DNA from: Theionarchaea archaeon
GTDB lineage: Archaea; Methanobacteriota_B; Thermococci; Methanofastidiosales; SZ-28-30
Reading direction: 5' to 3'
DNA: 64,000 nt
NCBI GenBank assembly: GCA_018992685.1
Contig: JACVGT010000003.1
Span: 128,001 to 192,000 of the forward strand
Positions 50,895 to 62,669 of this stretch are shown here, piece after piece. The notes under the pieces are model-generated. The model saw only the letters and a program-made list of their open reading frames with translations, did not search any database and was not told the DNA's origin. Both the position numbers and the translations under genes were made by a program. Position 1 is the stretch's first letter, and the number at the start of each line of letters is the position of its first letter.

Positions 50895-51143
50895 CTGGCC
50901 AACCTCTTCTTCTGCGGCGGTTGAGTGTTGCCTGCAGTGAAGAGACACCCTAGGGACGTTTTGTCGGGTGAAAGCCAGATAGATGTTCTGACGTATAGAT
51001 ACGCGTACCTGAGAATCAGCGAGGAGTCATTTGGAGGACGCCCTCTGTGACAAGACACAGCCGATAGTATGAGATTGAGAACGACACCCGTCCGCCGGAT
51101 ATCCACACTCTCCAAATGGCCCCTCTTGACAGAAGGCCACCAG
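50895..51143 (-). ncRNA. Putative structured non-coding RNA, family unknown
   Basis: 16-nt helix 51021-51036/51110-51125, closing helix 50895-50906/51133-51143, terminator downstream, no convincing ORF. Confidence 0.35.
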
Positions 51144-51406
51144 TAGATCGACATGTAGAACATTTCTGCACACTATTTGCAAGATTCACAATGTAATTAT
51201 CATGAGCAAGTATCCTCTTTGAGAAGTTAAACCTCTTTTTTATATGAAGTTCAATGAAACAGCGTTTTGACTATTTCATTCATCCTATATTACCTCTACC
51301 GATTCACCAATTGGTGAGAGGGAATATAAAAGTTTGCTCCATGTGGGGAGCGGTAAGACCTTTAGAGAGATTTCTGACCACACGGTCAGGAAGATAAAGA
51401 GAATAG

Positions 51407-51940
51407 TGTACCCTTTTCTGGAACTACCTGGAAGACATAGTTTATGAGCCATCGAAAATAGCTATAGAATATCCAGAAGAACCTCCCGAAAAAGGAAGTT
51501 CACATTATGGATGGATGATATTCCCCTACGTTAGGTACAATTTGAGGACTGGTTACACACCCATCGTGAAGAAGTTACATATAGCTTTTGATTCTTTCTG
51601 CAAGGGAATTGACTATCTATTAAATATATCTACAGTATTATTACCTTATTACCCGTTAGGATTCAAGTTATACTCACAGCAGTTTCTCGTTTTCTGGTCG
51701 GACTACGAAGATTTACTATGCAAGTCTTTTAGTTTTCTACCGTGCCACACGTCAATTACCAAGGCAGATGATGCCATATTTGTATATGTAAGTGTTGAGA
51801 AAGGGCTGCTTGAAAAAAGGTTACTTCAATTCTGTTTTAAGATGAGTGATATGGGATATATTGACCGCTTTTGGAGTTCAATCCCCATATATCACCGGAT
51901 ACCTGATGAGCATGGACTAACCAGGACTTCCACCACCTGA
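51407..51940 (+). pseudogene. 5'-truncated hypothetical gene fragment
   Basis: Frame open from the stop at 51404 with no start codon until ATG 51515; protein-like, AT-rich. Confidence 0.45.
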
Positions 51941-51977
51941 ACCTCCATCTCCACATATACTACTATCTTGAATCCCC

Positions 51978-52038
51978 TTCAATAGTTCAAGTGGGATTAT
52001 GTTCAATAGTTCAAGTGGGATTATGTTCAATGGTTCAA
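51978..52038 (+). repeat. 24-bp tandem repeat, 2.5 copies
   Basis: ttcaatagttcaagtgggattatg x2 plus ttcaatggttcaa. Confidence 0.85.
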
Positions 52039-52165
52039 AGGGCCAATCCTTTAGAAAGTTCATACATCTTCACCTCACTGCTACTTTACAGAACTGATTA
52101 AAAATATTTGGGTAATAATTGCGTAAAAAACTGGAAGTTAAATGTGCATATTTATTCCACTGTAA

Positions 52166-52297
52166 TTGACTAAAGCAATCTATGAGACATCCTGGTTCAA
52201 AGCTATTGTTGTATGGATAGCGTACATCATAGTGATTGTGATTGTTTTGGTGATCCTGGCAGTCCTTGGAATTGTAGCAGGGCTGGTTTTTCTGTAA
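52166..52297 (+). pseudogene. 3' fragment of a paralog of the membrane protein at 59148..59489
   Basis: KAIYETSWFKAIVVWIAYII vs KYVYATSWGKAVITWILYII. Confidence 0.7.
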
Positions 52298-52335
52298 GTG
52301 CCCATATCCTTTCTCTTTTCATCTACTTCCTCTCA

Positions 52336-53028
52336 TTACACTGGCTGTTCTTCCAGTACGAAATTCATGAGTTTCATCTCAGCTTTACGCAAGTGCTCCC
52401 ACGCTGTGCTGGTGCTGATCCCCATGTCAACAGCTATGGTCTTGATATCAGTTTTCCGGGGAAATGAATAGTATCCGTGTTCAAAAGCAGCATGGATTAT
52501 CTTCCGCTGCATTTCTGTGAGGTGAACGTCACCTGAAAGCGGCCAGGACCACTTCAGGAAGGACATTTTTCTGGCGTGATCATTGCGCACAATTTTCTTT
52601 ATCTTGTATTCCAGGTTCGCCTTGGTGAGGAGATCGAAGTACTCCTGCAGTGATACGTCTTTGTACACAATCCCCGAGATCACTTCCTTTTCCTCCTGGA
52701 CTATGATTGGATAATCAAGGATAAATCCCATTTTGTTGGTCTCTCTGATGACGGAATTTGCCTCAGGTCCAATGATGTACCTCAACTTGGTAATGTTTTC
52801 TGCACTGACGACATCAATGATGGTGACGTCGTCTGGAACATGAGAAATGCACTGCTGGACCTCATGATTGTGTTCAGCCTTTGAGAATTTCACTGATAAT
52901 TCAATGTACACACTCCCATCTTTGAATACGTCTGCTCGATCTATGAGACATGTCTTGACATGATCCAACCTGGAGACTCTGTTGCACAATCCTCCTGTGT
53001 GGTATATGTTTAGACGAGCATAATACAT
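52336..53028 (-). CDS. Bat-type (HTH_10) transcription regulator
   Basis: LTEMQRKIIHAAFEHGYYSFPR...EHLRKAEMK. Confidence 0.88.
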   Translation of the reverse strand: MYYARLNIYHTGGLCNRVSRLDHVKTCLIDRADVFKDGSVYIELSVKFSKAEHNHEVQQCISHVPDDVTIIDVVSAENITKLRYIIGPEANSVIRETNKMGFILDYPIIVQEEKEVISGIVYKDVSLQEYFDLLTKANLEYKIKKIVRNDHARKMSFLKWSWPLSGDVHLTEMQRKIIHAAFEHGYYSFPRKTDIKTIAVDMGISTSTAWEHLRKAEMKLMNFVLEEQPV

Positions 53029-53387
53029 TACGTCTACTTTTTCTTCCTTGTTTTTAAGGGTTTCCCGGATTCAATGTTAATTTGAGAAACCGGAGCTATT
53101 TTTAGTTGGTAGAAATAAAGGAGATTCTTTATTTCGAAAGAATCCCAAAAAATAAAAGAAGTATCTTTTACCTTATATTACAAGAACTCTGTTCATTGCT
53201 GGGTAAAACTACTATCAAGAACCGTGAGACTTTTCCTTTCAGGAGTATCATTATTTTCATGAAGTATTCTGGTGCATAGTCCAGCCTCTTTCGTCACGTC
53301 TTCGTGTGATTTTGCCTGCAAATCCACTAAGAATGAGTCAGATGGATTATTCAGGCAGCTTTCGTTCTGAAATGGACAGTCAAGGAA

Positions 53388-54653
53388 CTACCAGGCCATG
53401 TTATAGTGGGTTTTCATCAGTTCCACGAATTTGTCCCACTCTCCTCCCACAGGATCAGGTAGAGAAAAGTGAGTCTCAATAACATCCGGGTCTTTCAATC
53501 CTCCACCTGTGATTACGCTTACTACAGTGTCTTGGGCATCTATATGTCCCGAGTCATGCAGAGTTTTGGCCGCAGCAATCGCAGCAGCAGAAGTTGTGCT
53601 GGCATAAATACCCTCGTGAGTCGCCAGGGAGAAGACGGCTTCCAGAATGTCACCATCTTCTACCGTAAGGGCCACACCCCCTGAGTCTTTTACAGCTCTG
53701 TAAGCCTGGTAACCCACCTGTGGCACCAGAATGTGCTTGGCAATGGTGGGGGCAGTTTCAACTCTCTGGATGCATTCTGCACCGCTGGTGAGGGTCTTGG
53801 TAAGAGATCCCCCAGCAGATGACTCAACAGCCACCATCTGGGGAAGTGCGTCAATGAACCCTGTGGTATAGAGATCCTGGAACCCTCTCCACACGGCAAA
53901 CAGCCCAAATCCCATTCCAGTGGGAACGATCACATAGTCTGGAACATTCCATGAAAGCTGTTCGCAGATTTCAAATGCCACAGTTTTTCTCCCTTCTTCA
54001 CTGTAAGGATCTCCTGTGGGTGATCTGGTGTAGCTGCTGACGGGATGTGCATGCAATGTGTCCACGCATGTTTTCATGAGGACATACCTGTCTTCGTATT
54101 TCTTCAGGTAGACCACCTTTCCACCATACGAGAGGGTCTGCAAGATGGCCTGCATGGATTCGTCCTGGTTTTCAAAACTGATTACCTGGAGACCGGAGAC
54201 AGCCCCGTACGCTGCCGCTGCAGCAGCAGTATTTCCCCCTCCCGCGATGAGATGGCGGGATCCGAACTTCCTTGCCACGGTAGCTCCCACAGCAGCCGAT
54301 CTGTCCTTGAACGTGTGGGTGGGATTCCTTGATTCATCTTTAGCACACAAATGATGGAGTCCAAGGGCTGGGCCCAGTTTCCTGCAGGGCAGAAGGGGGG
54401 TTCCTCCCTCTCCCAGAGTAAGACTCGATTCAGGGTCAACAGGAAGGAATTCCTGCCACTTCCATACTCCCTGCACGCACCTTTTCTTCAACACTTTCCT
54501 AGATACAGTCTCTTTTATCTTCTCGTAATCATAGTCGACAACGACGTTTGATTGAAACCGATCCGTCTTGCAGCGTGGGCACCCCTCGAACATCCGCTCC
54601 AGTGGGTACTGAGCTCCACAATGCAAGCATTTCAGCATACGCTCATACATCAT
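53388..54653 (-). CDS. Threonine-synthase-like PLP (fold type II) enzyme
   Basis: LGEGGTPL, KDESRNPTHTFKDR, EG.KT, PTG.G, TGGGLKD; usual ASTGN replaced by AGGGN. Confidence 0.85.
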   Translation of the reverse strand: MMYERMLKCLHCGAQYPLERMFEGCPRCKTDRFQSNVVVDYDYEKIKETVSRKVLKKRCVQGVWKWQEFLPVDPESSLTLGEGGTPLLPCRKLGPALGLHHLCAKDESRNPTHTFKDRSAAVGATVARKFGSRHLIAGGGNTAAAAAAYGAVSGLQVISFENQDESMQAILQTLSYGGKVVYLKKYEDRYVLMKTCVDTLHAHPVSSYTRSPTGDPYSEEGRKTVAFEICEQLSWNVPDYVIVPTGMGFGLFAVWRGFQDLYTTGFIDALPQMVAVESSAGGSLTKTLTSGAECIQRVETAPTIAKHILVPQVGYQAYRAVKDSGGVALTVEDGDILEAVFSLATHEGIYASTTSAAAIAAAKTLHDSGHIDAQDTVVSVITGGGLKDPDVIETHFSLPDPVGGEWDKFVELMKTHYNMAW

Positions 54654-55719
54654 TCTTCCTCCTTGAAACCATGTCCACGATCTCCTCAGGAGCCATTCCG
54701 CTGAGTCCCAAGCGCTCACATGTCACTCCCCTTTCCCAGTAGTCAGTACCGTCAACCACTGACCAAGCCCCAACCAACATTCTGGCACCAGGAGCTGGAA
54801 TCTTGAGCATATCACACAGGGAGACGAGTGGAACAAGGCCATAGATTAATTCTTCCCGGACATAGCTCAAAGGATCTGGTAACACGTACTCACGGACGGC
54901 CTCCCAGTTCTTGATTGTCTGATAGGTCGTCTCTCCCTTCACTGCGTAATAGTCCTGAATCATTGTGGCTGCACTCTTGAGATCCAGCCCCAGAGTATGG
55001 CACAGGGCCAGCCGTTCTGAATCCGCAGCGTCCACAGCCCTTGCAACTCTGGGGGATATTCCCTCCGAATAGAACCAGAAGGTTTCAGAGTCCTCTTCTA
55101 CACGGTTCATGTTGAAAAGAGCAATTGGCACGTGGATCACGGGGTTATAATTTTCAAGGCTGGTTTCCAGAACACTTCGCCCCGGAACGAGTTGCGGCAC
55201 ATAGGCATGGAGCTTCTCATACACAGAATTCAGTCTATCTGGAGGGTAGGTTGCCATTCTCACAGTACTCTTTTCTCCGGAAATACGGACGTGACCTGGT
55301 TCCACCACTCTGCAGGCCAGTGGCAACAGGGTCGTTTCTGCTATTGTGACGTCAGTTCGATCAGATTCTCTTAAGAGATGCTGGAGTCTCAGGGCGGCCC
55401 AGTATCCAGTGAACACGACAATGACTGCATGCTCCTGAAGATAGGGGAGACTCTGTTCTACCAATGACTCGTGCCCTCCAGCTCGTGCAGTGACCAGTAC
55501 ATAGGGAACATTGGAAACGACAGTTTCAAGATCACACGACGCTGCCTGTATTGCAGCCTCTCCTTCCAGGATTCCTGATACCTTCAGTCTGCGAGAGCCG
55601 GCAAGGGAGGCAATCCTTTCTGGGGTTCTGTTGTAGAGAAAAAGATCGTGGCCTTTGAGGGCTAGATAGCCAGCAATCCCCTGCCCGGCACTGCCAGCTC
55701 CCAGGACTGCAAATTTCAC
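54643..55719 (-). CDS. NAD/NADP octopine/nopaline (opine) dehydrogenase family
   Basis: GAGSAG, AET..L..ACR, N.NP.IH, FY.EGI, D.ERLAL, Y..E...YGL; GTG start after GGAGG. Confidence 0.88.
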   Translation of the reverse strand: MKFAVLGAGSAGQGIAGYLALKGHDLFLYNRTPERIASLAGSRRLKVSGILEGEAAIQAASCDLETVVSNVPYVLVTARAGGHESLVEQSLPYLQEHAVIVVFTGYWAALRLQHLLRESDRTDVTIAETTLLPLACRVVEPGHVRISGEKSTVRMATYPPDRLNSVYEKLHAYVPQLVPGRSVLETSLENYNPVIHVPIALFNMNRVEEDSETFWFYSEGISPRVARAVDAADSERLALCHTLGLDLKSAATMIQDYYAVKGETTYQTIKNWEAVREYVLPDPLSYVREELIYGLVPLVSLCDMLKIPAPGARMLVGAWSVVDGTDYWERGVTCERLGLSGMAPEEIVDMVSRRKNDV

Positions 55720-55898
55720 ATAGATTCCTCCTGCAGCCAACATGAGTGGCAATCTTCACTCAGTTGGGATTACCCCTTGTGGCGGAATCTTAAATTATTA
55801 TTGCCTGAATACTTCGGCAAAGTTCTTATAAACAATTGTTCACAAATAATGAGCTAGGATTGGCAGGATTCGCATTCTGTTAATCGAGAGGTGATTCT

Positions 55899-57026
55899 AT
55901 GTCAGATTGTTCAGTTATTGGGATGAATAAAGACGATCTGGACACACCGTGTCTCCTGGTAGATTTGGATGTTGTTGAAAAGAACATTAAGACAATGGCT
56001 GACTACTATAGAAAGAAGGAAGGTGCAGCCCTGCGTCCCCATCAAAAAGGACACAGACTTCCTATAATAGGAAAGAAACAGGTTGAAGCGGGAGCCAAAG
56101 GAGTTTCTATGACCTCTCTGGGTCTTGCAGAGTATTATGCACAGTGTGGATTCTCAGATATCCTGGTGACCAATGAGGTGGCAGGGTATAACAAGATGAG
56201 ACGGGTAGCAACTCTCTCCAAACAGGCAGATGTCACTGTGGGCGTAGATAGTATCGAAAATGCGATGAAGCTGGGAGATGTGGCACGCGAGATGGACACA
56301 GTGATACAGGTAGGTGTAGAACTCTACATGGGAACGGGCACGTGTGGAGTAGACATGAAAGATGCAGGGTCTCTGATAAAGAAGATCACCACGGTAGGTG
56401 GAGTCATGTTCAGGGGTGTCTGGTGGCACCAGGGTTCTCTGGCTGATATTATTAACTGGGAGGAAAGAAAACAGGCCCATTTCAAGACTCTGGATAGGGT
56501 GGCCATGCTGAAGTCAGAGCTTGAGAAAGAGGATATTTCTCTTGAGATTATCAGTGGAGGATTTACGTGTACCTGGGACATCACCCCTGAGTACGGTGGA
56601 CTGGAGAATGTTGAGGTTCAGGCCGGAAGCTATGTATTCAGTGACTGGTGTTCCCACGAAAGCGAAGGGCTCGATGTATTTGACTATGCATTGACTGTCC
56701 TGACCAGATGCATCAGTCGGCCCCAGCCAGATGAGATATGCTTCGATGCAGGCATGAATGCGTGTTCTGATGAACACACTGACAGCTATTTGAATGTCGT
56801 GGGGTTCAAGATCAAAGGCATGGAAGGGATAAAGAGGGTAAAACAGCGTGAAGAATTGTCCATGGTGAAGGTTGAAAAGCCTCCATCAGATATTCGTATA
56901 GGAGATACCGTGGAGTTGATACCTCCTCATTCTGATACCACGGCCAAGCTTCATGACAGGTATTACGGAGTACGCAAAGGGAGAGTAGAAGCTGTTTTTC
57001 CTAACTACGGAAGGGGACTTCTCTAG
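55899..57026 (+). CDS. Alanine-racemase-fold PLP enzyme (D-serine dehydratase / D-threonine aldolase, DSD1-like)
   Basis: LDTPCL.VDL, LRPHQKGH, SGG.T, EVQAGSYVF.D, DAG, IPPH. Confidence 0.87.
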   Translation: MSDCSVIGMNKDDLDTPCLLVDLDVVEKNIKTMADYYRKKEGAALRPHQKGHRLPIIGKKQVEAGAKGVSMTSLGLAEYYAQCGFSDILVTNEVAGYNKMRRVATLSKQADVTVGVDSIENAMKLGDVAREMDTVIQVGVELYMGTGTCGVDMKDAGSLIKKITTVGGVMFRGVWWHQGSLADIINWEERKQAHFKTLDRVAMLKSELEKEDISLEIISGGFTCTWDITPEYGGLENVEVQAGSYVFSDWCSHESEGLDVFDYALTVLTRCISRPQPDEICFDAGMNACSDEHTDSYLNVVGFKIKGMEGIKRVKQREELSMVKVEKPPSDIRIGDTVELIPPHSDTTAKLHDRYYGVRKGRVEAVFPNYGRGLL

Positions 57027-57046
57027 GGTAATGTGAGGAGTGTGTC

Positions 57047-58729
57047 ATGAAGATCACGACTGTAGAAAAAGCGTATGACATTGTGGTAGTGGGGGGAGGA
57101 GGTGCAGGCGCTCAGGCGGCCCTTTCTGCTTCTGCTACTGCCAGTGACCTGAAGATAGCACTTGTTGACAAGGGCATCCTAGGGAGATCGGGGTGCACGA
57201 TTTTAGGCAGTTTTTCCTGCAATGCAGCTCTCGGTTCCGGGGGATCTGGAGATAGCCCTCGGGCACATTTTCTGGACACGATCAAGGAAGGACGATACAT
57301 CAATGACCAATCGCTGGTGAGAGTGTATACTGAAAAGGCACCAGAACGTGTTGTGGCCCTGCACAGAGAAGGTCCCGTTTTTGAAGAGGAGGATGGGGAA
57401 CTGAAGCAGGATATGGTACCTGGACACTCGTTTCCCCGGGCAGTCTTCAACAATCTGCATACAGGGAAGAGTATGATTGTGGCTCTGATGAAACAGGTGA
57501 AGAGAGCCCCTATAGATGTATATGATGAATGCATGATCTTTGACGTGGTGTGTGAGGGCAATGAAATCCGAGGAGTAGTTGCATACGACCTCGCAGGCAG
57601 GATCATAGTCTTTTCATGCAAGGCAGTGATCATTGCAGCTGGAGGATGTGGGCAGCTCTACCCTCACAGTACTACCAGCAGGGGAGCAACAGGAGATGGA
57701 CTCGTCTTGGCCTACAAAGCGGGAGCAGAGCTTCAGGACCTGGAATTCATCCAGTTTTTTCCCACAGCTCAATGTTATCCTCGGCTGTTGAAATTAAACC
57801 CCACCATACCTTCTATGCTGCGCTACAAGGGGGGGTGTAGATTGTACAATGCAGAAGGCCATGAATTCATGAAGGAAAAGAATCCCCAGTGGCGGTTTAG
57901 CGTAACCCGAGACGAGCTGTCCAAAGCTATCTATACGGAAATCAAGGAGGGAAGAGGAACTCCTCATGGCGGGGTGTACATGGATGTCCTCCATCTGACA
58001 GAACAGGAAATCACTGATATATTCTCATTTGCCAACCTTTTTGATGACCTGTTGAAGACAGGCATAGACTTGCGAAAGGATCGAATTGAGACGACTGTTG
58101 CAGCTCATTTTTCCATGGGCGGCATTCGGGTTGATGAGACCTTCGCTACATGTGTTGGCGGGCTGTTTGCTGCAGGGGAAGCTGCTGCAGGGATACACGG
58201 GGCAAACAGGCTGCCGGGAAATGCGTTGTCAGAGATTCTGGTGACAGGGCACGAAGCAGGAAGGAGAGCTGCAGAATACGCACGCAAGACGGAATTCCAC
58301 GAGATCGAGGGAACAGAGAGTGTCAGGAAGATTGAGGGCACCATGGAGAGAACAGGTGACAGTACCCCCATAGCCATGAAGAAGGAGATACAGAGGACAC
58401 TGTGGGAACACGCAGGAGTAGTCAGGAACGAGAAAGGACTCATGAATGGCATAGCAACACTTGAGAGAATAAGAGAAGATATGTCAAGAGTTGAGATATC
58501 CACTGAGACGTTGGTGTGGAATAAAGAACTGGTAGACTTCCTTGAAATGGAGTTCATGGTGGAAATGGGTCTGCTGTTGACCAGAGCAGCACTATTCAGG
58601 ACAGAATCGAGGGGATCCCACTTCAGAGAGGATTACCCTGAGAGTGATTCATCCTGGATAGTAAATGTCGTGCTGCGCAACGGAACCTGTAGAAGGGAAC
58701 CCGTGATGATGGAGGAATCAGATGACTGA
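57047..58729 (+). CDS. SdhA/FrdA/TfrA-like FAD oxidoreductase
   Basis: GGGGAG, RSGCT, TGDG, E..QF.PT, RD, HFSMGG, HGANRL.GN.L, ESRGSHFREDYP. Confidence 0.88.
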   Translation: MKITTVEKAYDIVVVGGGGAGAQAALSASATASDLKIALVDKGILGRSGCTILGSFSCNAALGSGGSGDSPRAHFLDTIKEGRYINDQSLVRVYTEKAPERVVALHREGPVFEEEDGELKQDMVPGHSFPRAVFNNLHTGKSMIVALMKQVKRAPIDVYDECMIFDVVCEGNEIRGVVAYDLAGRIIVFSCKAVIIAAGGCGQLYPHSTTSRGATGDGLVLAYKAGAELQDLEFIQFFPTAQCYPRLLKLNPTIPSMLRYKGGCRLYNAEGHEFMKEKNPQWRFSVTRDELSKAIYTEIKEGRGTPHGGVYMDVLHLTEQEITDIFSFANLFDDLLKTGIDLRKDRIETTVAAHFSMGGIRVDETFATCVGGLFAAGEAAAGIHGANRLPGNALSEILVTGHEAGRRAAEYARKTEFHEIEGTESVRKIEGTMERTGDSTPIAMKKEIQRTLWEHAGVVRNEKGLMNGIATLERIREDMSRVEISTETLVWNKELVDFLEMEFMVEMGLLLTRAALFRTESRGSHFREDYPESDSSWIVNVVLRNGTCRREPVMMEESDD

Positions 58730-59036
58730 AACTGCAATAGTCACCATTTTTAGATTTAATCCAGAAAGAGACGATTGTCCCAGAATGGAGGAATTCGAAA
58801 TACCATTTGACCCGAAAAAGACTGTTCTGGAGGTTCTGCAATACATTTACGAAGAAAAGGATGGATCACTGGCCTTCAGAGAGTCCTGCAGGTCTGGGTT
58901 CTGCAGCACGTGCGGGGTCACTGTTGATGGGAACCGCTGCCTGGCGTGCACAACCTACATGAAAAGAAAAATGACGATAGAACCTCTTGCACATCACAGA
59001 GTACTGAGAGACCTTGTAGTCGAGATGAAGAAGTGA
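58722..59036 (+). CDS. Stand-alone 2Fe-2S protein (SdhB/FrdB N-terminal domain only)
   Basis: LAFRESCRSGFCSTC...LAC, RDLVV; ends there. Confidence 0.85.
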   Translation: MTETAIVTIFRFNPERDDCPRMEEFEIPFDPKKTVLEVLQYIYEEKDGSLAFRESCRSGFCSTCGVTVDGNRCLACTTYMKRKMTIEPLAHHRVLRDLVVEMKK

Positions 59037-60237: not shown

Positions 60238-61446
60238 ATGCTTTTCAAGATCATCCCTAGTTGGACTACTGGTGGTATTGTGAAAGCTGCAGACCGAACT
60301 GAATCTGTTACGTATGCTATAGGAGATGTGGTAGTTCCTGCACGTGAGCTCCAGAGAAAGGGGGCTGACATCATGTGGCTGAATTTGGGGGATCCTGACA
60401 AATTCGATTTTGACACACCACTTCATATCAAAGAGGCTGCTGTCAAAGCCATGAGTACATACAATGGATATGCAGACTCGGAAGGCCTTCCTGCATTGCG
60501 AGAGGCAGTTGCGTCCAGAGAAAAGAGGAAAAATGGTATTTCAGTTTCTAAAGAGGACGTTTTTATTACAAATGGGACTTCTGAAGCAATTCAGATGATC
60601 TATGGGGCGTTGCTCAATCCTGGAGATGAAATTCTGGTGCCAGGTCCGACATACCCCCCCTATACATCGCTGGCCCGGTTTTTTGATGCAGTTCCCGTCC
60701 CCTATGTGACCGTGGAGAAGGAGAACTGGTCCCCTGATATTGATGACATACGAAAGAGGCTGTCAGATAAGACACGGGCCATCCTGCTGATCAACCCCAA
60801 TAATCCCACAGGTGCTCTCTACAGCAGAAAGTGTGTGGAAGCAATTGCTGGACTGGCAGCTGAGCATGGTGCTGTGGTGATTTCTGATGAGATATACGAT
60901 ACCATGACATTCGAGGAACAGCACTACAGCCCTTCCCGGGTTGAGGATGTGCCTGTTATTGTAATTGATGGAATGTCAAAGGCGTATCTCTCCACTGGAT
61001 GGCGAGTGGGATGGACCGTATTCAATGATCACAACGGAATCCTGGCAGAGATCAAGGATGCCTGTGTGAAGCAACTGCGGCTGAGGATTAGTGCAAATTC
61101 AGTGATGCAGGAGGCCGCAGTTGCTGCCCTGAATGGCTCCCAGGATCACATAAAGAACGTTGCCGAGAAGCTCAAGGAACGGAGAGACTTCATGTACAAG
61201 AGGTTGAATGAGATCGAGGGCATAACAACCCAGAAGCCCATGGGGGCCTTTTATATCTTTCCGAAAGTGGACTGTGAGGATGACAAGAGGTTTGTCCTCG
61301 ATATCCTTGAGAATACACACGTTTTGTTTGTACACGGGTCGGGATTCGGCCCATATGGAAAGGGACATTTCCGATCAATTTTCCTCCCACCCATAGAAAC
61401 CCTGGAAAAGGCCATGAATGCGGTGGAAACTTTCATGACACGATGA
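60238..61446 (+). CDS. Class I/II aminotransferase (AlaA/AlaAT-like)
   Basis: LNLGDP, INPNNPTG, SDEIY, SKAY..TGWRVG. Confidence 0.9.
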   Translation: MLFKIIPSWTTGGIVKAADRTESVTYAIGDVVVPARELQRKGADIMWLNLGDPDKFDFDTPLHIKEAAVKAMSTYNGYADSEGLPALREAVASREKRKNGISVSKEDVFITNGTSEAIQMIYGALLNPGDEILVPGPTYPPYTSLARFFDAVPVPYVTVEKENWSPDIDDIRKRLSDKTRAILLINPNNPTGALYSRKCVEAIAGLAAEHGAVVISDEIYDTMTFEEQHYSPSRVEDVPVIVIDGMSKAYLSTGWRVGWTVFNDHNGILAEIKDACVKQLRLRISANSVMQEAAVAALNGSQDHIKNVAEKLKERRDFMYKRLNEIEGITTQKPMGAFYIFPKVDCEDDKRFVLDILENTHVLFVHGSGFGPYGKGHFRSIFLPPIETLEKAMNAVETFMTR

Positions 61447-61610: not shown

Positions 61611-62669
61611 CTACATCCTCTTGTTCAGTATGTCACTGATTTCCCGTGTGGCTTTCAATCCACTCCCTGTCAACACGGCTGCCCGTGATTTTGAGGGGTC
61701 TACCTTTCTCAGAGCGGCCATCACAGACGCAGACGTGGGTTCAATGAACAATCCCAGGCTGACAGCTTTCTTCAGGCCTTCAGCTATTTCCTTTTCTGAA
61801 ACAACCACAAGTTCCCCATTCTGCCGGACGATTTTCAGTATCTCCTGCAGTCGCGGCGGGTGTTCCACGAGCAATCCCTCGGCCACAGACTTTTCACATG
61901 TCCTCTCTTTCTCATACAGTGCATTGTACACAGGTGAACACACTTCAGGCTGTACTCCCACCAGGTTGGGGATCCGCTCAATCACATCAGACTCATACAG
62001 GTGCTTGAATCCCAAATAGGCTCCGTAATACAGCGAGCCTGACCCCACAGGTACAACCACGACATCAGGCACGTCCCAGTCGAGCTGCTCGCCAATCTCG
62101 TATGCAATTGTCTTCATTCCCTGTAGAAACCAGGGATTCCACTGGTGAGATGCATAGTACACAGTCTCAGCCCGTTTCAGTGCCTCCTTCCTGGTATCCT
62201 CGCGGGTTCCTTCAACCTTCCTCATGTCTGCCCCGAATGCTTCTATTTGAAAGACTTTCCCCTGCGAAGCATAGGCCGGGACGTAAATCTCAGCCGTGAT
62301 TCCAGCTCTGGCAGCATATGCAGCAATGGAGGCACCCGCATTTCCTGAAGAATCCTCCACAATTCGAGGTATGTTGTGGCGGTGCAGGACAGACATCATC
62401 ACTGTTGAACCTCTATCCTTGAAGGACCCGGTGGGAAAGAAGAAATCAAGTTTGTAATAACAGTTATCAATGAAAACGAAAGGAGTATGTCCTTCGTCAA
62501 AGGATACACGTTTTTCCGTGCCCAAGTAGGGCTGATAACGCCACAGTGATGATCCCTTCAGCTCTCTAACATCAAACTGCTGTTCTTCTAGTACCTCTAC
62601 AGGGCCTCCACAGACACACTTCCAAGCAGTCTCTTCCACTTCGTGACCGCATCGAGAACACACAATCAT
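61611..62669 (-). CDS. thrC: Threonine synthase family PLP enzyme
   Basis: [31 protein letters not shown]. Confidence 0.8.

Follow-up and report, generated by a model that had tools for sequence, protein, structure and literature searches.

A linked opine-dehydrogenase-like and threonine-synthase-like gene pair, probably of amino-acid catabolism, in a Theionarchaea archaeon and in other archaea and bacteria

Detrital amino acids are the presumed food of sediment archaea such as the Theionarchaea, their uncultured relatives and the Thorarchaeota, and the compounds that these archaea use and their redox balance are known only from annotation. A 64,000-nucleotide stretch of a Theionarchaea archaeon (assembly GCA_018992685.1, contig JACVGT010000003.1, positions 128,001 to 192,000; hereafter the window) carries, between its positions 52,336 and 59,036, two divergent units that bring this question down to single genes. 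One encodes an opine-dehydrogenase-family protein (ODH) and a threonine-synthase-like protein (ThrCL), and the other a protein resembling BhcC and D-threonine aldolases (the aldolase-like protein), an SdhA-like flavoprotein (SdhAL) and a small 2Fe-2S protein. A reading made from the DNA alone (the sequence-only reading) had taken these five genes and an adjacent regulator for one regulated pathway that uses or makes an opine or an unusual hydroxy- or D-amino acid. Do the five genes belong together, and which reaction could they carry out? Gene calls were based on the list of open reading frames (ORFs) combined with Pfam and NCBIfam profile scans, the latter with curated equivalog cut-offs, and every gene family named in that reading was found at or near its proposed place. 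However, the region consists of three modules side by side, namely the ODH-ThrCL pair, the aldolase-like gene, and SdhAL with its 2Fe-2S partner.

Relatives of ODH were aligned and traced to 25 loci, 5 from species-representative genomes and 20 from metagenomes, the window being the 26th. A ThrCL orthologue (44-88% identity) directly follows ODH in all 20 loci whose contig runs past ODH; in the other 5 of the 25, the contig ends within 117 nucleotides (nt) of ODH. Since ThrCL follows in every informative locus, the arrangement is more than chance. In the window, the longest ORFs of the two genes overlap, and the database copies (P0001, 358 amino acids (aa); P0241, 421 aa) favour shorter starts, with which ∼5 nt separate the ODH stop from the ThrCL start. 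A single 209-nt contig from an RNA library spans the ODH/ThrCL junction and gives a weak hint of the same linkage; the RNA data are assembled contigs of two metatranscriptome libraries that leave most of the region uncovered and may contain carried-over DNA. A predicted complex of ODH with ThrCL scored 0.00 in a run made without controls, and we count it neither for nor against the pair.

The carriers of the pair are metagenome-assembled genomes (MAGs) titled Methanomicrobia, 'Thermococci', Theionarchaea and Ignavibacteria, along with one database entry named Thorarchaeota. The ODH clade comprises 28 clusters at 41% identity or more, after which the next match drops to 35%, and the ThrCL clade is of similar size (35 clusters at 47% identity or more); the longest contigs of several entries are equally long in both hit lists. 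Of the 133 genomes of the phylum, only 4 have a strong ODH orthologue, and a fifth, the sister genome, has a copy split in two. The pair is thus an accessory module of patchy distribution that crosses domains. As to the split copy, it matches as two pieces (L005, 10001-10973; G032:C16:11108-12074) covering residues 1-118/119 and 185/186-358, and in L005 the pieces are ∼100 nt apart where ∼200 would be expected, the mark of a broken gene or of an assembly fault. The genome of the window also holds an ODH paralogue (31% identity; G000 C1 169197-173940, L061) in a different gene cluster, next to a MarR-like gene, a 549-aa B12-binding-domain protein, an NAD synthase and a D-Ala-D-Ala-ligase-like ATP-grasp enzyme; among 17 genomes of a related genus, 14 have a paralogue of this kind.

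Could the genes stand together by chance, each serving a separate housekeeping role in threonine synthesis, in fumarate reduction or NAD synthesis, or in glycine/threonine metabolism? In favour of this, the full five-gene set is limited to one genus, the genome has NadA and some enzyme must therefore make iminoaspartate, and two nearby genes, for alanine aminotransferase (AlaAT) and a second threonine synthase (ThrC2), are of housekeeping grade. However, the linkage in 20 of 20 loci across domains already contradicts it for the pair. Moreover, ODH, ThrCL, the aldolase-like protein and SdhAL all score below every NCBIfam equivalog cut-off, as the sequence-only reading had anticipated in setting them apart from ordinary housekeeping orthologues. 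The active-site changes of ThrCL and SdhAL are clade specific and the promoter block shared by the divergent units is conserved (see later in the text), so that we regard a chance neighbourhood as very unlikely.

ODH matches PF02317 with 108 bits against a cut-off of 30, and Rossmann-type families match its residues 13-163. The closest solved relative is CENDH, the opine dehydrogenase of Arthrobacter (1bg6; residues 3-344, E 3e-42). The position aligned to CENDH His202, which we take to be the catalytic residue, is His in 28/28 members of the ODH family, and the one aligned to Asp297, presumably an acidic residue close to it, is Glu or Asp in all 28. The end of strand beta2 carries neither Asp nor Glu in any of these members, and Asn-Arg follows in 20 of them. 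By the Rossmann-fold rule, the absence of an acidic residue at this place suggests that ODH depends on NADP(H) and hence works in the reductive direction. The data give no particular support to the claim that ODH acts on an opine, a role as imine reductase fitting them equally well.

The kinship with CENDH, like the marine-sediment source, is what true opine catabolism would have led one to expect. On that account, the cell would take up an N-carboxyalkyl amino acid such as an opine of invertebrates or plants; ODH would split it to give 2-oxoglutarate or pyruvate together with an amino acid, which ThrCL would degrade. We consider this unlikely: NAD(P)H-dependent enzymes of the ODH family are mostly synthases, the NADP-type motif favours reduction, and the account gives no reason for the constant ThrC-derived partner of ODH. 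In addition, bacterial opine catabolism reportedly uses flavin-containing opine oxidases or dehydrogenases (PMC4575208).

ThrCL scores below all threonine synthase (ThrC) cut-offs (PRK08197, its best NCBIfam model, 270 against 303 bits; PRK05638, 192 against 421; TIGR00260, 129 against 167). Its predicted pyridoxal phosphate (PLP) lysine, K116, is invariant in 18/18 aligned members of the clade, the FKDR tetrad varying in a few; FKDR aligns with SFKDRG of the solved ThrCs, and the C-terminal TGxGLKD is kept. Three other motifs are changed: the S-T-G-N-T loop of the solved ThrCs reads [AG]GGN (G-G-G-N) in the ThrCL clade, the Arg of NP[YF]R[LI]EGQKT is replaced by Ser in G-DPYS[QE]EG, and GNAGN has become GQGF or GMGF. 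We assume that the loop, the Arg and the Asn contact the substrate or its phosphate. Among the 120 best database hits, the GGGN-type loop and G-DPYS are limited to the ODH-linked clade, in which cluster P0274 deviates in the loop; the distant relatives that also bear the N-terminal Cys4 ribbon keep S-[ST]-[ST]-G-N; and the canonical ThrCs P0327, P0345 and P0360 retain all the classic motifs, as P0357 nearly does (GNGGN). Judged from the alignment, only the GGGN loop and the G-DPYS motif appear to be specific to the clade, and ThrCL does not look like a housekeeping ThrC. The idea that ThrCL is the sole ThrC of its genome was discarded, as G134 and G135 have another ThrC above the TIGR00260 cut-off and the genome of the window has ThrC2.

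ThrC- and CysK-family enzymes also perform replacement reactions, cysteate synthase and SbnA being examples, and ODH (PF02317) belongs to the family of the CntM-type opine synthases. A biosynthetic route of the SbnA/SbnB or staphylopine kind could be built on this: ThrCL would couple serine or homoserine, in activated form, with the amino group of another amino acid. From the N-alkyl product, ODH would either release a diamino acid and 2-oxoglutarate by oxidative cleavage or, by the reductive addition of a 2-oxo acid, build an opine-type chelator. The patchy occurrence of the pair across domains (4/133 phylum genomes plus the split copy, and Ignavibacteria) and the racemases and 2-oxoglutarate-linked enzymes nearby would suit such a route. 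We nevertheless hold it to be improbable. The residues that hold the phosphate in the solved ThrCs are missing in ThrCL and an O-phospho donor is therefore unlikely; if ODH prefers NADP(H), as is probable, this speaks against an oxidative step of the SbnB kind; and the neighbours are catabolic, with oxidoreductases, succinyl-CoA synthetase and uptake binding proteins. No exporter, nicotianamine-synthase-like gene or metal-uptake gene was seen among the neighbours of the pair.

Two observations on more distant relatives of ThrCL are worth recording. The wider ribbon-bearing family annotated as 'threonine synthase' (P0276-P0360) carries DESRNPT[WG]SFKDR, SSTGN and NPYGIEGYKT and is mostly without the Arg and Asn motifs of the solved ThrCs, and its annotation may need checking. 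On plasmids of rhizobia and haloarchaea, relatives with 33-37% identity have a cysteine-synthase-family gene, a kinase or a Xaa-Pro peptidase as neighbour, and no ODH was present in the two plasmid contexts inspected. Of these relatives, the genes of Aminobacter and Bosea plasmids (L083, L084; 34-37% identity) adjoin a cysteine-synthase-family gene and a kinase, the Bosea gene also a Xaa-Pro peptidase and a tripartite tricarboxylate transporter; they look like a separate ThrC-like module.

The ORFs of all 26 loci, window included, were clustered and the cluster representatives annotated. The most frequent neighbours of the pair are a class I/II aminotransferase closest to the archaeal aspartate aminotransferase (11 of 26 loci), an Amdase/EutA-like protein (10) and a Peripla_BP_6 binding protein (9). 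They are followed by the alpha and beta subunits of succinyl-CoA synthetase, both over their NCBIfam cut-offs (9 and 8), the alpha, beta and gamma subunits of a 2-oxoacid:ferredoxin oxidoreductase (OFOR; 8, 8 and 6), an Asp-type racemase over the asp_race and CuyB cut-offs (8), a class III aminotransferase (7) and an aldehyde:ferredoxin oxidoreductase (AOR; 6). Less common are an M29-like and a D-glutamate-cyclase-like protein (4 loci each), ornithine carbamoyltransferase and an SBP_bac_5 binding protein (3 each), and OadA/PycB-like and LarA-like proteins (2 each). In loci of the Ignavibacteria type, one strand carries eleven or twelve of these neighbour genes, with ODH-ThrCL between succinyl-CoA synthetase on one side and the class III aminotransferase and racemase on the other. 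The neighbours of the pair thus make up a recurrent catabolic, energy-conserving setting. These genes bear on the unlikely accounts considered above: the binding proteins (Peripla_BP_6 in 9 loci, SBP_bac_5 in 3) would serve the uptake of opines and OFOR with succinyl-CoA synthetase could burn the 2-oxoglutarate released from them, and OFOR, succinyl-CoA synthetase, AOR and the binding proteins are the catabolic genes that tell against biosynthesis.

The Asp-type racemase, the Asp-aminotransferase-like protein, OadA, the malate-racemase-like LarA, the KOR-like oxidoreductase and succinyl-CoA synthetase point to C4/C5 dicarboxylic amino acids, or to their sulfonate analogues. The linked racemase scores 254 bits on the CuyB model (cut-off 190) and equally on the generic Asp-racemase model, and no sulfo-lyase or sulfite-handling gene was seen near the pair; a role in cysteate or sulfonate metabolism is a possible lead. 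A missing step of the lysine pathway was also considered for the pair and set aside, the genome having DapA and two LysA-grade decarboxylases. Elsewhere in this genome lies a second conserved module (G000 C4 48310-59158, L062), parts of which adjoin ODH in L009 and L012. It encodes a thiamine pyrophosphate (TPP) enzyme, a sodium:solute symporter, a 162-aa protein without an assigned family, M29-like and Amdase/EutA-like proteins, a class V aminotransferase and the two LysA-grade decarboxylases, along with an ORF that is presumably DapF-like at its N-terminus.

Taken together, the pair probably performs an undescribed two-step conversion of an amino acid in amino-acid-fermenting archaea and bacteria. 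From the linkage, the family assignments and the motif changes observed, we infer the chemistry, its direction and the kind of substrate as follows. We tentatively propose, as a possibility that falls somewhat short of an even chance, that ThrCL eliminates a beta or gamma substituent of an amino acid to leave a 2-imino or 2-oxo acid, which ODH then reduces with NADP(H). The two enzymes would be co-transcribed as a core pair. ThrCL would act on a probably hydroxylated or otherwise substituted amino acid of the Asp/Glu type, and the enamine or 2-imino acid set free would hydrolyse to the 2-oxo acid. Reduction of the product by ODH would either be direct, with the enzyme acting as an imine reductase and yielding a plain amino acid, or follow the condensation of that product with another amino acid, in which case ODH would be an opine synthase. 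The aminotransferase and the Asp-type racemase would, in most carriers, pass the product on to OFOR and succinyl-CoA synthetase, with gain of ATP. The pair would thus be an NADPH-consuming reductive arm of amino-acid fermentation that disposes of reducing power. In the lineage of the window, it would share its promoter region with a BhcC-like D-beta-hydroxy-amino-acid aldolase and RidA, and a soluble SdhAL with its lone 2Fe-2S partner would have been inserted.

Several points weigh against the elimination-reduction scheme. No Arg of ODH aligns with CENDH Arg292, which presumably binds the carboxylate of the 2-oxo acid, and an Arg stands three positions later in 23/28 members. ThrC2 passes the ThrC equivalog model and yet lacks the canonical Arg and Asn, as do the wider ribbon-bearing ThrC-like relatives, so that the loss of these residues in ThrCL is by itself no proof of a changed function. 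The neighbourhoods vary among lineages, and some loci are near duplicates (L004 and L018; L001, L002 and L008), so that the neighbour counts overstate the independence of the loci. The OFOR beta subunit scores below the KOR cut-off. To our knowledge, no enzyme of the ODH or ThrCL clade has been characterised and all known analogues that combine a PALP enzyme with a reductase use a reductase of the ornithine-cyclodeaminase family rather than of the ODH family. Finally, sequence cannot reveal the substrate.

The window lies on contig C5 of a genome of 3.03 Mb in 45 contigs, which is 91% complete. It is syntenic with a Theionarchaea MAG contig of the sister genome G032 (L005; 81-100% protein identity), and marine-sediment metagenomes hold near-identical DNA. 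The features of the region are collected in Table 1. The window is archaeal, with a TFIIB gene and HTH_10 regulators, and ThrC2 and a TFB gene converge on the plus-strand run from its far side.

Table 1. Features of the window around the ODH-ThrCL pair, with the matches on which the calls rest
Feature	Position	Strand	Evidence
HTH_10 (Bat-type) regulator, 230 aa	52336-53028	-	PF04967, residues 170-221, E 8e-20
ThrCL, threonine-synthase-like fold-type-II PLP enzyme, 421 aa	53388-54653	-	PF00291, E 7e-56; N-terminal Cys4 ribbon
ODH, NAD(P)-dependent opine-dehydrogenase-family protein, 358 aa, GTG start	54643-55719	-	PF02317, E 4.5e-31
Divergent intergenic control region, 179 nt	55720-55898	.	Conserved ∼45-nt block
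DSD1-family BhcC/D-threonine-aldolase-like fold-type-III PLP enzyme, 375 aa	55899-57026	+	PF14031 + PF01168
SdhAL, divergent SdhA/TfrA/NadB-family flavoprotein, 560 aa	57047-58729	+	PF00890 + PF02910
Lone 2Fe-2S protein, 104 aa	58722-59036	+	PF13085 over the whole protein
Small predicted membrane protein, 116 aa	59139-59489	+	No Pfam/NCBIfam match
RidA-family enamine/imine deaminase, 121 aa	59728-60093	+	PF01042, E 6e-39, 133 bits
Alanine aminotransferase, end of plus-strand run	60238-61446	+	PRK08363, 545 bits against cut-off 534
ThrC2 (second ThrC)	61611-62669	-	PRK06450, 331 bits against cut-off 301

The best PDB matches of the aldolase-like protein are 6qkb (BhcC, E 1.8e-51) and 4v15 (E 2e-39), and its score on the BhcC model is 219 bits against a cut-off of 690. 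Its Lys (in PHQKGH), His (in WWHQGS) and HSD align with residues of both structures, which we take to be the PLP lysine, the catalytic histidine and the H-x-D metal motif of BhcC and the D-threonine aldolases. The gene adjoins ODH, divergently, in only 3 of the 26 loci, namely the window, L005 and L006, and in L006 RidA directly follows it with no flavoprotein between. It was not found in four of five other genome handles with ODH-ThrCL, two of which, G134 and G003, are possibly the same genome; the fifth (G133) has a match of 26% identity. SdhAL, for its part, has a close orthologue only in the genus of the window among the 133 genomes of the phylum. The view of the five genes as one conserved pathway was therefore abandoned. 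What the comparison of neighbourhoods bears out is the ODH-ThrCL pair among genes of amino-acid catabolism, the aldolase-like gene and SdhAL being additions local to this lineage.

Within that lineage, the data do support co-regulation of the two divergent units, which the sequence-only reading had foreseen. A block of ∼45 nt in the intergenic region is conserved both in L005 and in the more distant L006 (ODH 63% and aldolase-like protein 73% identical), and the region shows two TATA-like boxes around an imperfect palindrome, CCTGAA-TAC-TTCGGG. The HTH_10 regulator lies downstream of ThrCL on the same strand and has an orthologue at the same place in L005 (88% identity); in L003, an HTH_10 protein of equal length (32% identity over 96 aa) adjoins ThrCL. 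Because the intergenic block is conserved and such a regulator adjoins ThrCL in these three loci, the two units may well be controlled together. Just upstream of the HTH_10 regulator, a 141-aa ORF without a family match (51515-51940, plus strand) lies in a stretch of low G+C content (51000-53500, 0.39-0.42); contigs C22 and C14 carry paralogues with 61-66% identity, and C19 and C6 more weakly similar ones.

Beyond the 2Fe-2S gene, the placement of ridA needed correction: RidA is there, as had been claimed, but it is not the first small ORF, which encodes the membrane protein. This protein was found by tblastn neither in L005 nor elsewhere in its own genome and is probably outside the pathway. 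It is very hydrophobic, and the two metatranscriptome libraries contain contigs of 347 and 350 nt that match exactly and cover just this ORF. One RNA-library contig falls within AlaAT, of which a 52%-identical paralogue lies on contig C16. Both AlaAT and ThrC2 score above housekeeping cut-offs and may lie outside the pathway.

SdhAL matches PF00890 (215 bits) and PF02910 (98 bits) and remains below the cut-offs of TfrA (460 against 718 bits), TIGR01812 (sdhA_frdA; 387 against 567), PRK06069 (376 against 826) and the NadB model TIGR00551 (317 against 452.75). Where SdhA reads RSHT, SdhAL reads RSGCT, and the His that binds FAD covalently is absent. Where TfrA of Methanopyrus (P0201) reads QFHPT, SdhAL reads QFFPT; of 33 rows inspected out of 120 aligned homologues, 32 have QFFPT or QFYPT, and only P0201 has the His, which we assume to lie at the dicarboxylate site. 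The later active-site His and both Arg are kept. SdhAL therefore does not appear to be a housekeeping orthologue, its predicted dicarboxylate site being altered, and the earlier suggestion of a modified Sdh-like flavoenzyme was borne out by these changes in the active site. Its role may still touch NAD synthesis, a possibility that the presence of NadA keeps alive despite the NadB score. The genome has a second TfrA-like flavoprotein (G000, C6 ∼104270-108424, L027) of 549 aa with an N-terminal extension of ∼90 aa, beside TfrB-like and HdrB/CCG-like genes. This set may be the thiol- or Hdr-linked fumarate reductase of the genome, for which it is a more conventional candidate than SdhAL; that fumarate reduction could be served in this way is a further point against a chance neighbourhood of housekeeping genes.

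The 2Fe-2S gene overlaps the end of SdhAL by 8 nt and encodes only the N-terminal half of an SdhB protein, in that its NCBIfam SdhB/TfrB matches all end at about model position 100-110. The translation has four conserved Cys positions, compared here with the Cys spacing that we take to be that of SdhB. The same gene follows SdhAL in L005 and in L012, and the homologues P0193 and P0196 carry PF13085 fused to the flavoprotein. The window, L005 and L012 (a metagenome contig, with a distance of ∼8 kb) are the only loci in which SdhAL and the 2Fe-2S gene occur near ODH, and in three other ODH-ThrCL genomes tested no close SdhAL orthologue was present, the best match having 38% identity.

A bolder picture can be drawn from all this, and we think it a long shot. 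The ODH-ThrCL pair would be a PLP-based electron sink of anaerobic amino-acid fermenters, comparable to the reductive arm of the Stickland reaction; with the aldolase, RidA and aminotransferase of Theionarchaea, it would form an anaerobic, non-orthologous counterpart of the beta-hydroxyaspartate cycle; and SdhAL with its 2Fe-2S partner would represent a new class of soluble amino-acid or enoate oxidoreductases. Apart from this picture, a conserved pair inside energy-conserving operons is a concrete handle on a reaction missing from our view of these organisms, and as ODH and ThrCL are small and soluble they can be expressed and assayed. At present, automatic annotation is misleading: ThrCL is named "threonine synthase" and SdhAL "fumarate reductase subunit A", "L-aspartate oxidase" or "FAD-binding protein", and these names feed the metabolic reconstructions of these lineages. 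A literature search with supplementary files outside its scope found no paper linking an opine dehydrogenase with a threonine synthase, and titles and opening lines of abstracts on archaeal opine dehydrogenases describe no such pair. As far as this search reaches, descriptions exist of the logic of the pair, but neither of the protein families in which it is realised nor of the altered flavoprotein clade.

That logic is best seen in the beta-hydroxyaspartate cycle, in which BhcB is a PALP dehydratase and BhcD an iminosuccinate reductase. As in BhcB and BhcD, a fold-type-II PLP eliminase would be paired with an NAD(P)H-dependent reductase of a 2-imino acid, a likeness proposed here from the genes, and the window also has a BhcC-like aldolase and an aminotransferase, making up all four functional types. 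However, ThrCL belongs to the ThrC family and not to the serine/threonine dehydratases, the BhcB model giving no match at E up to 0.001, and ODH belongs to the Octopine_DH and not to the ornithine-cyclodeaminase family. A cycle of this type is conceivable in the lineage of the window and cannot be the general role of the pair, because the aldolase-like gene is missing in most of the other ODH-ThrCL genomes tested. The EutA, EutB and EutC proteins of hydroxyectoine utilisation offer a second parallel, in which one catabolic cluster combines a PALP enzyme and an NAD(P)H reductase with a protein of the racemase superfamily. For the Amdase/EutA-like gene at the loci of the pair, EutA is the best NCBIfam model (126 against 318 bits), and the class III aminotransferase is of the DoeD family. 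However, no score comes close to the Eut equivalog cut-offs, the binding proteins differ in type, and no ectoine hydrolase or deacetylase homologue was seen at the ODH-ThrCL loci.

SbnA and SbnB, which make L-2,3-diaminopropionate, resemble the pair in that a PALP enzyme precedes an NAD-dependent enzyme acting on an N-(carboxyalkyl) amino acid linked to glutamate/2-oxoglutarate. SbnA is, by contrast, CysK-like, its model giving only 27 bits on ThrCL, and SbnB is an oxidative enzyme of the ornithine-cyclodeaminase family, whereas the context of ODH-ThrCL is catabolic. CENDH has the two-domain fold and family of ODH, with the aligned His and acidic residue conserved; it differs in having an Asp where the cofactor motif of ODH is of the NADP type, and ODH always comes with ThrCL. 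The threonine synthases of known structure (6cgq, 2zsj, 1uim, 2d1f) have the fold, the PLP lysine in FKDR and TGxGLKD in common with ThrCL, in which the substrate motifs are changed and a Cys4 ribbon is added. In comparison with SdhB and TfrB, the 2Fe-2S partner of SdhAL has no domain for the 4Fe-4S and 3Fe-4S clusters, and neither a membrane anchor nor an Hdr-like subunit is encoded next to it, whereas SdhAL itself shares with TfrA, SdhA, FrdA and NadB both Pfam domains, the FAD-binding fold, the second His, both Arg and a 2Fe-2S partner.

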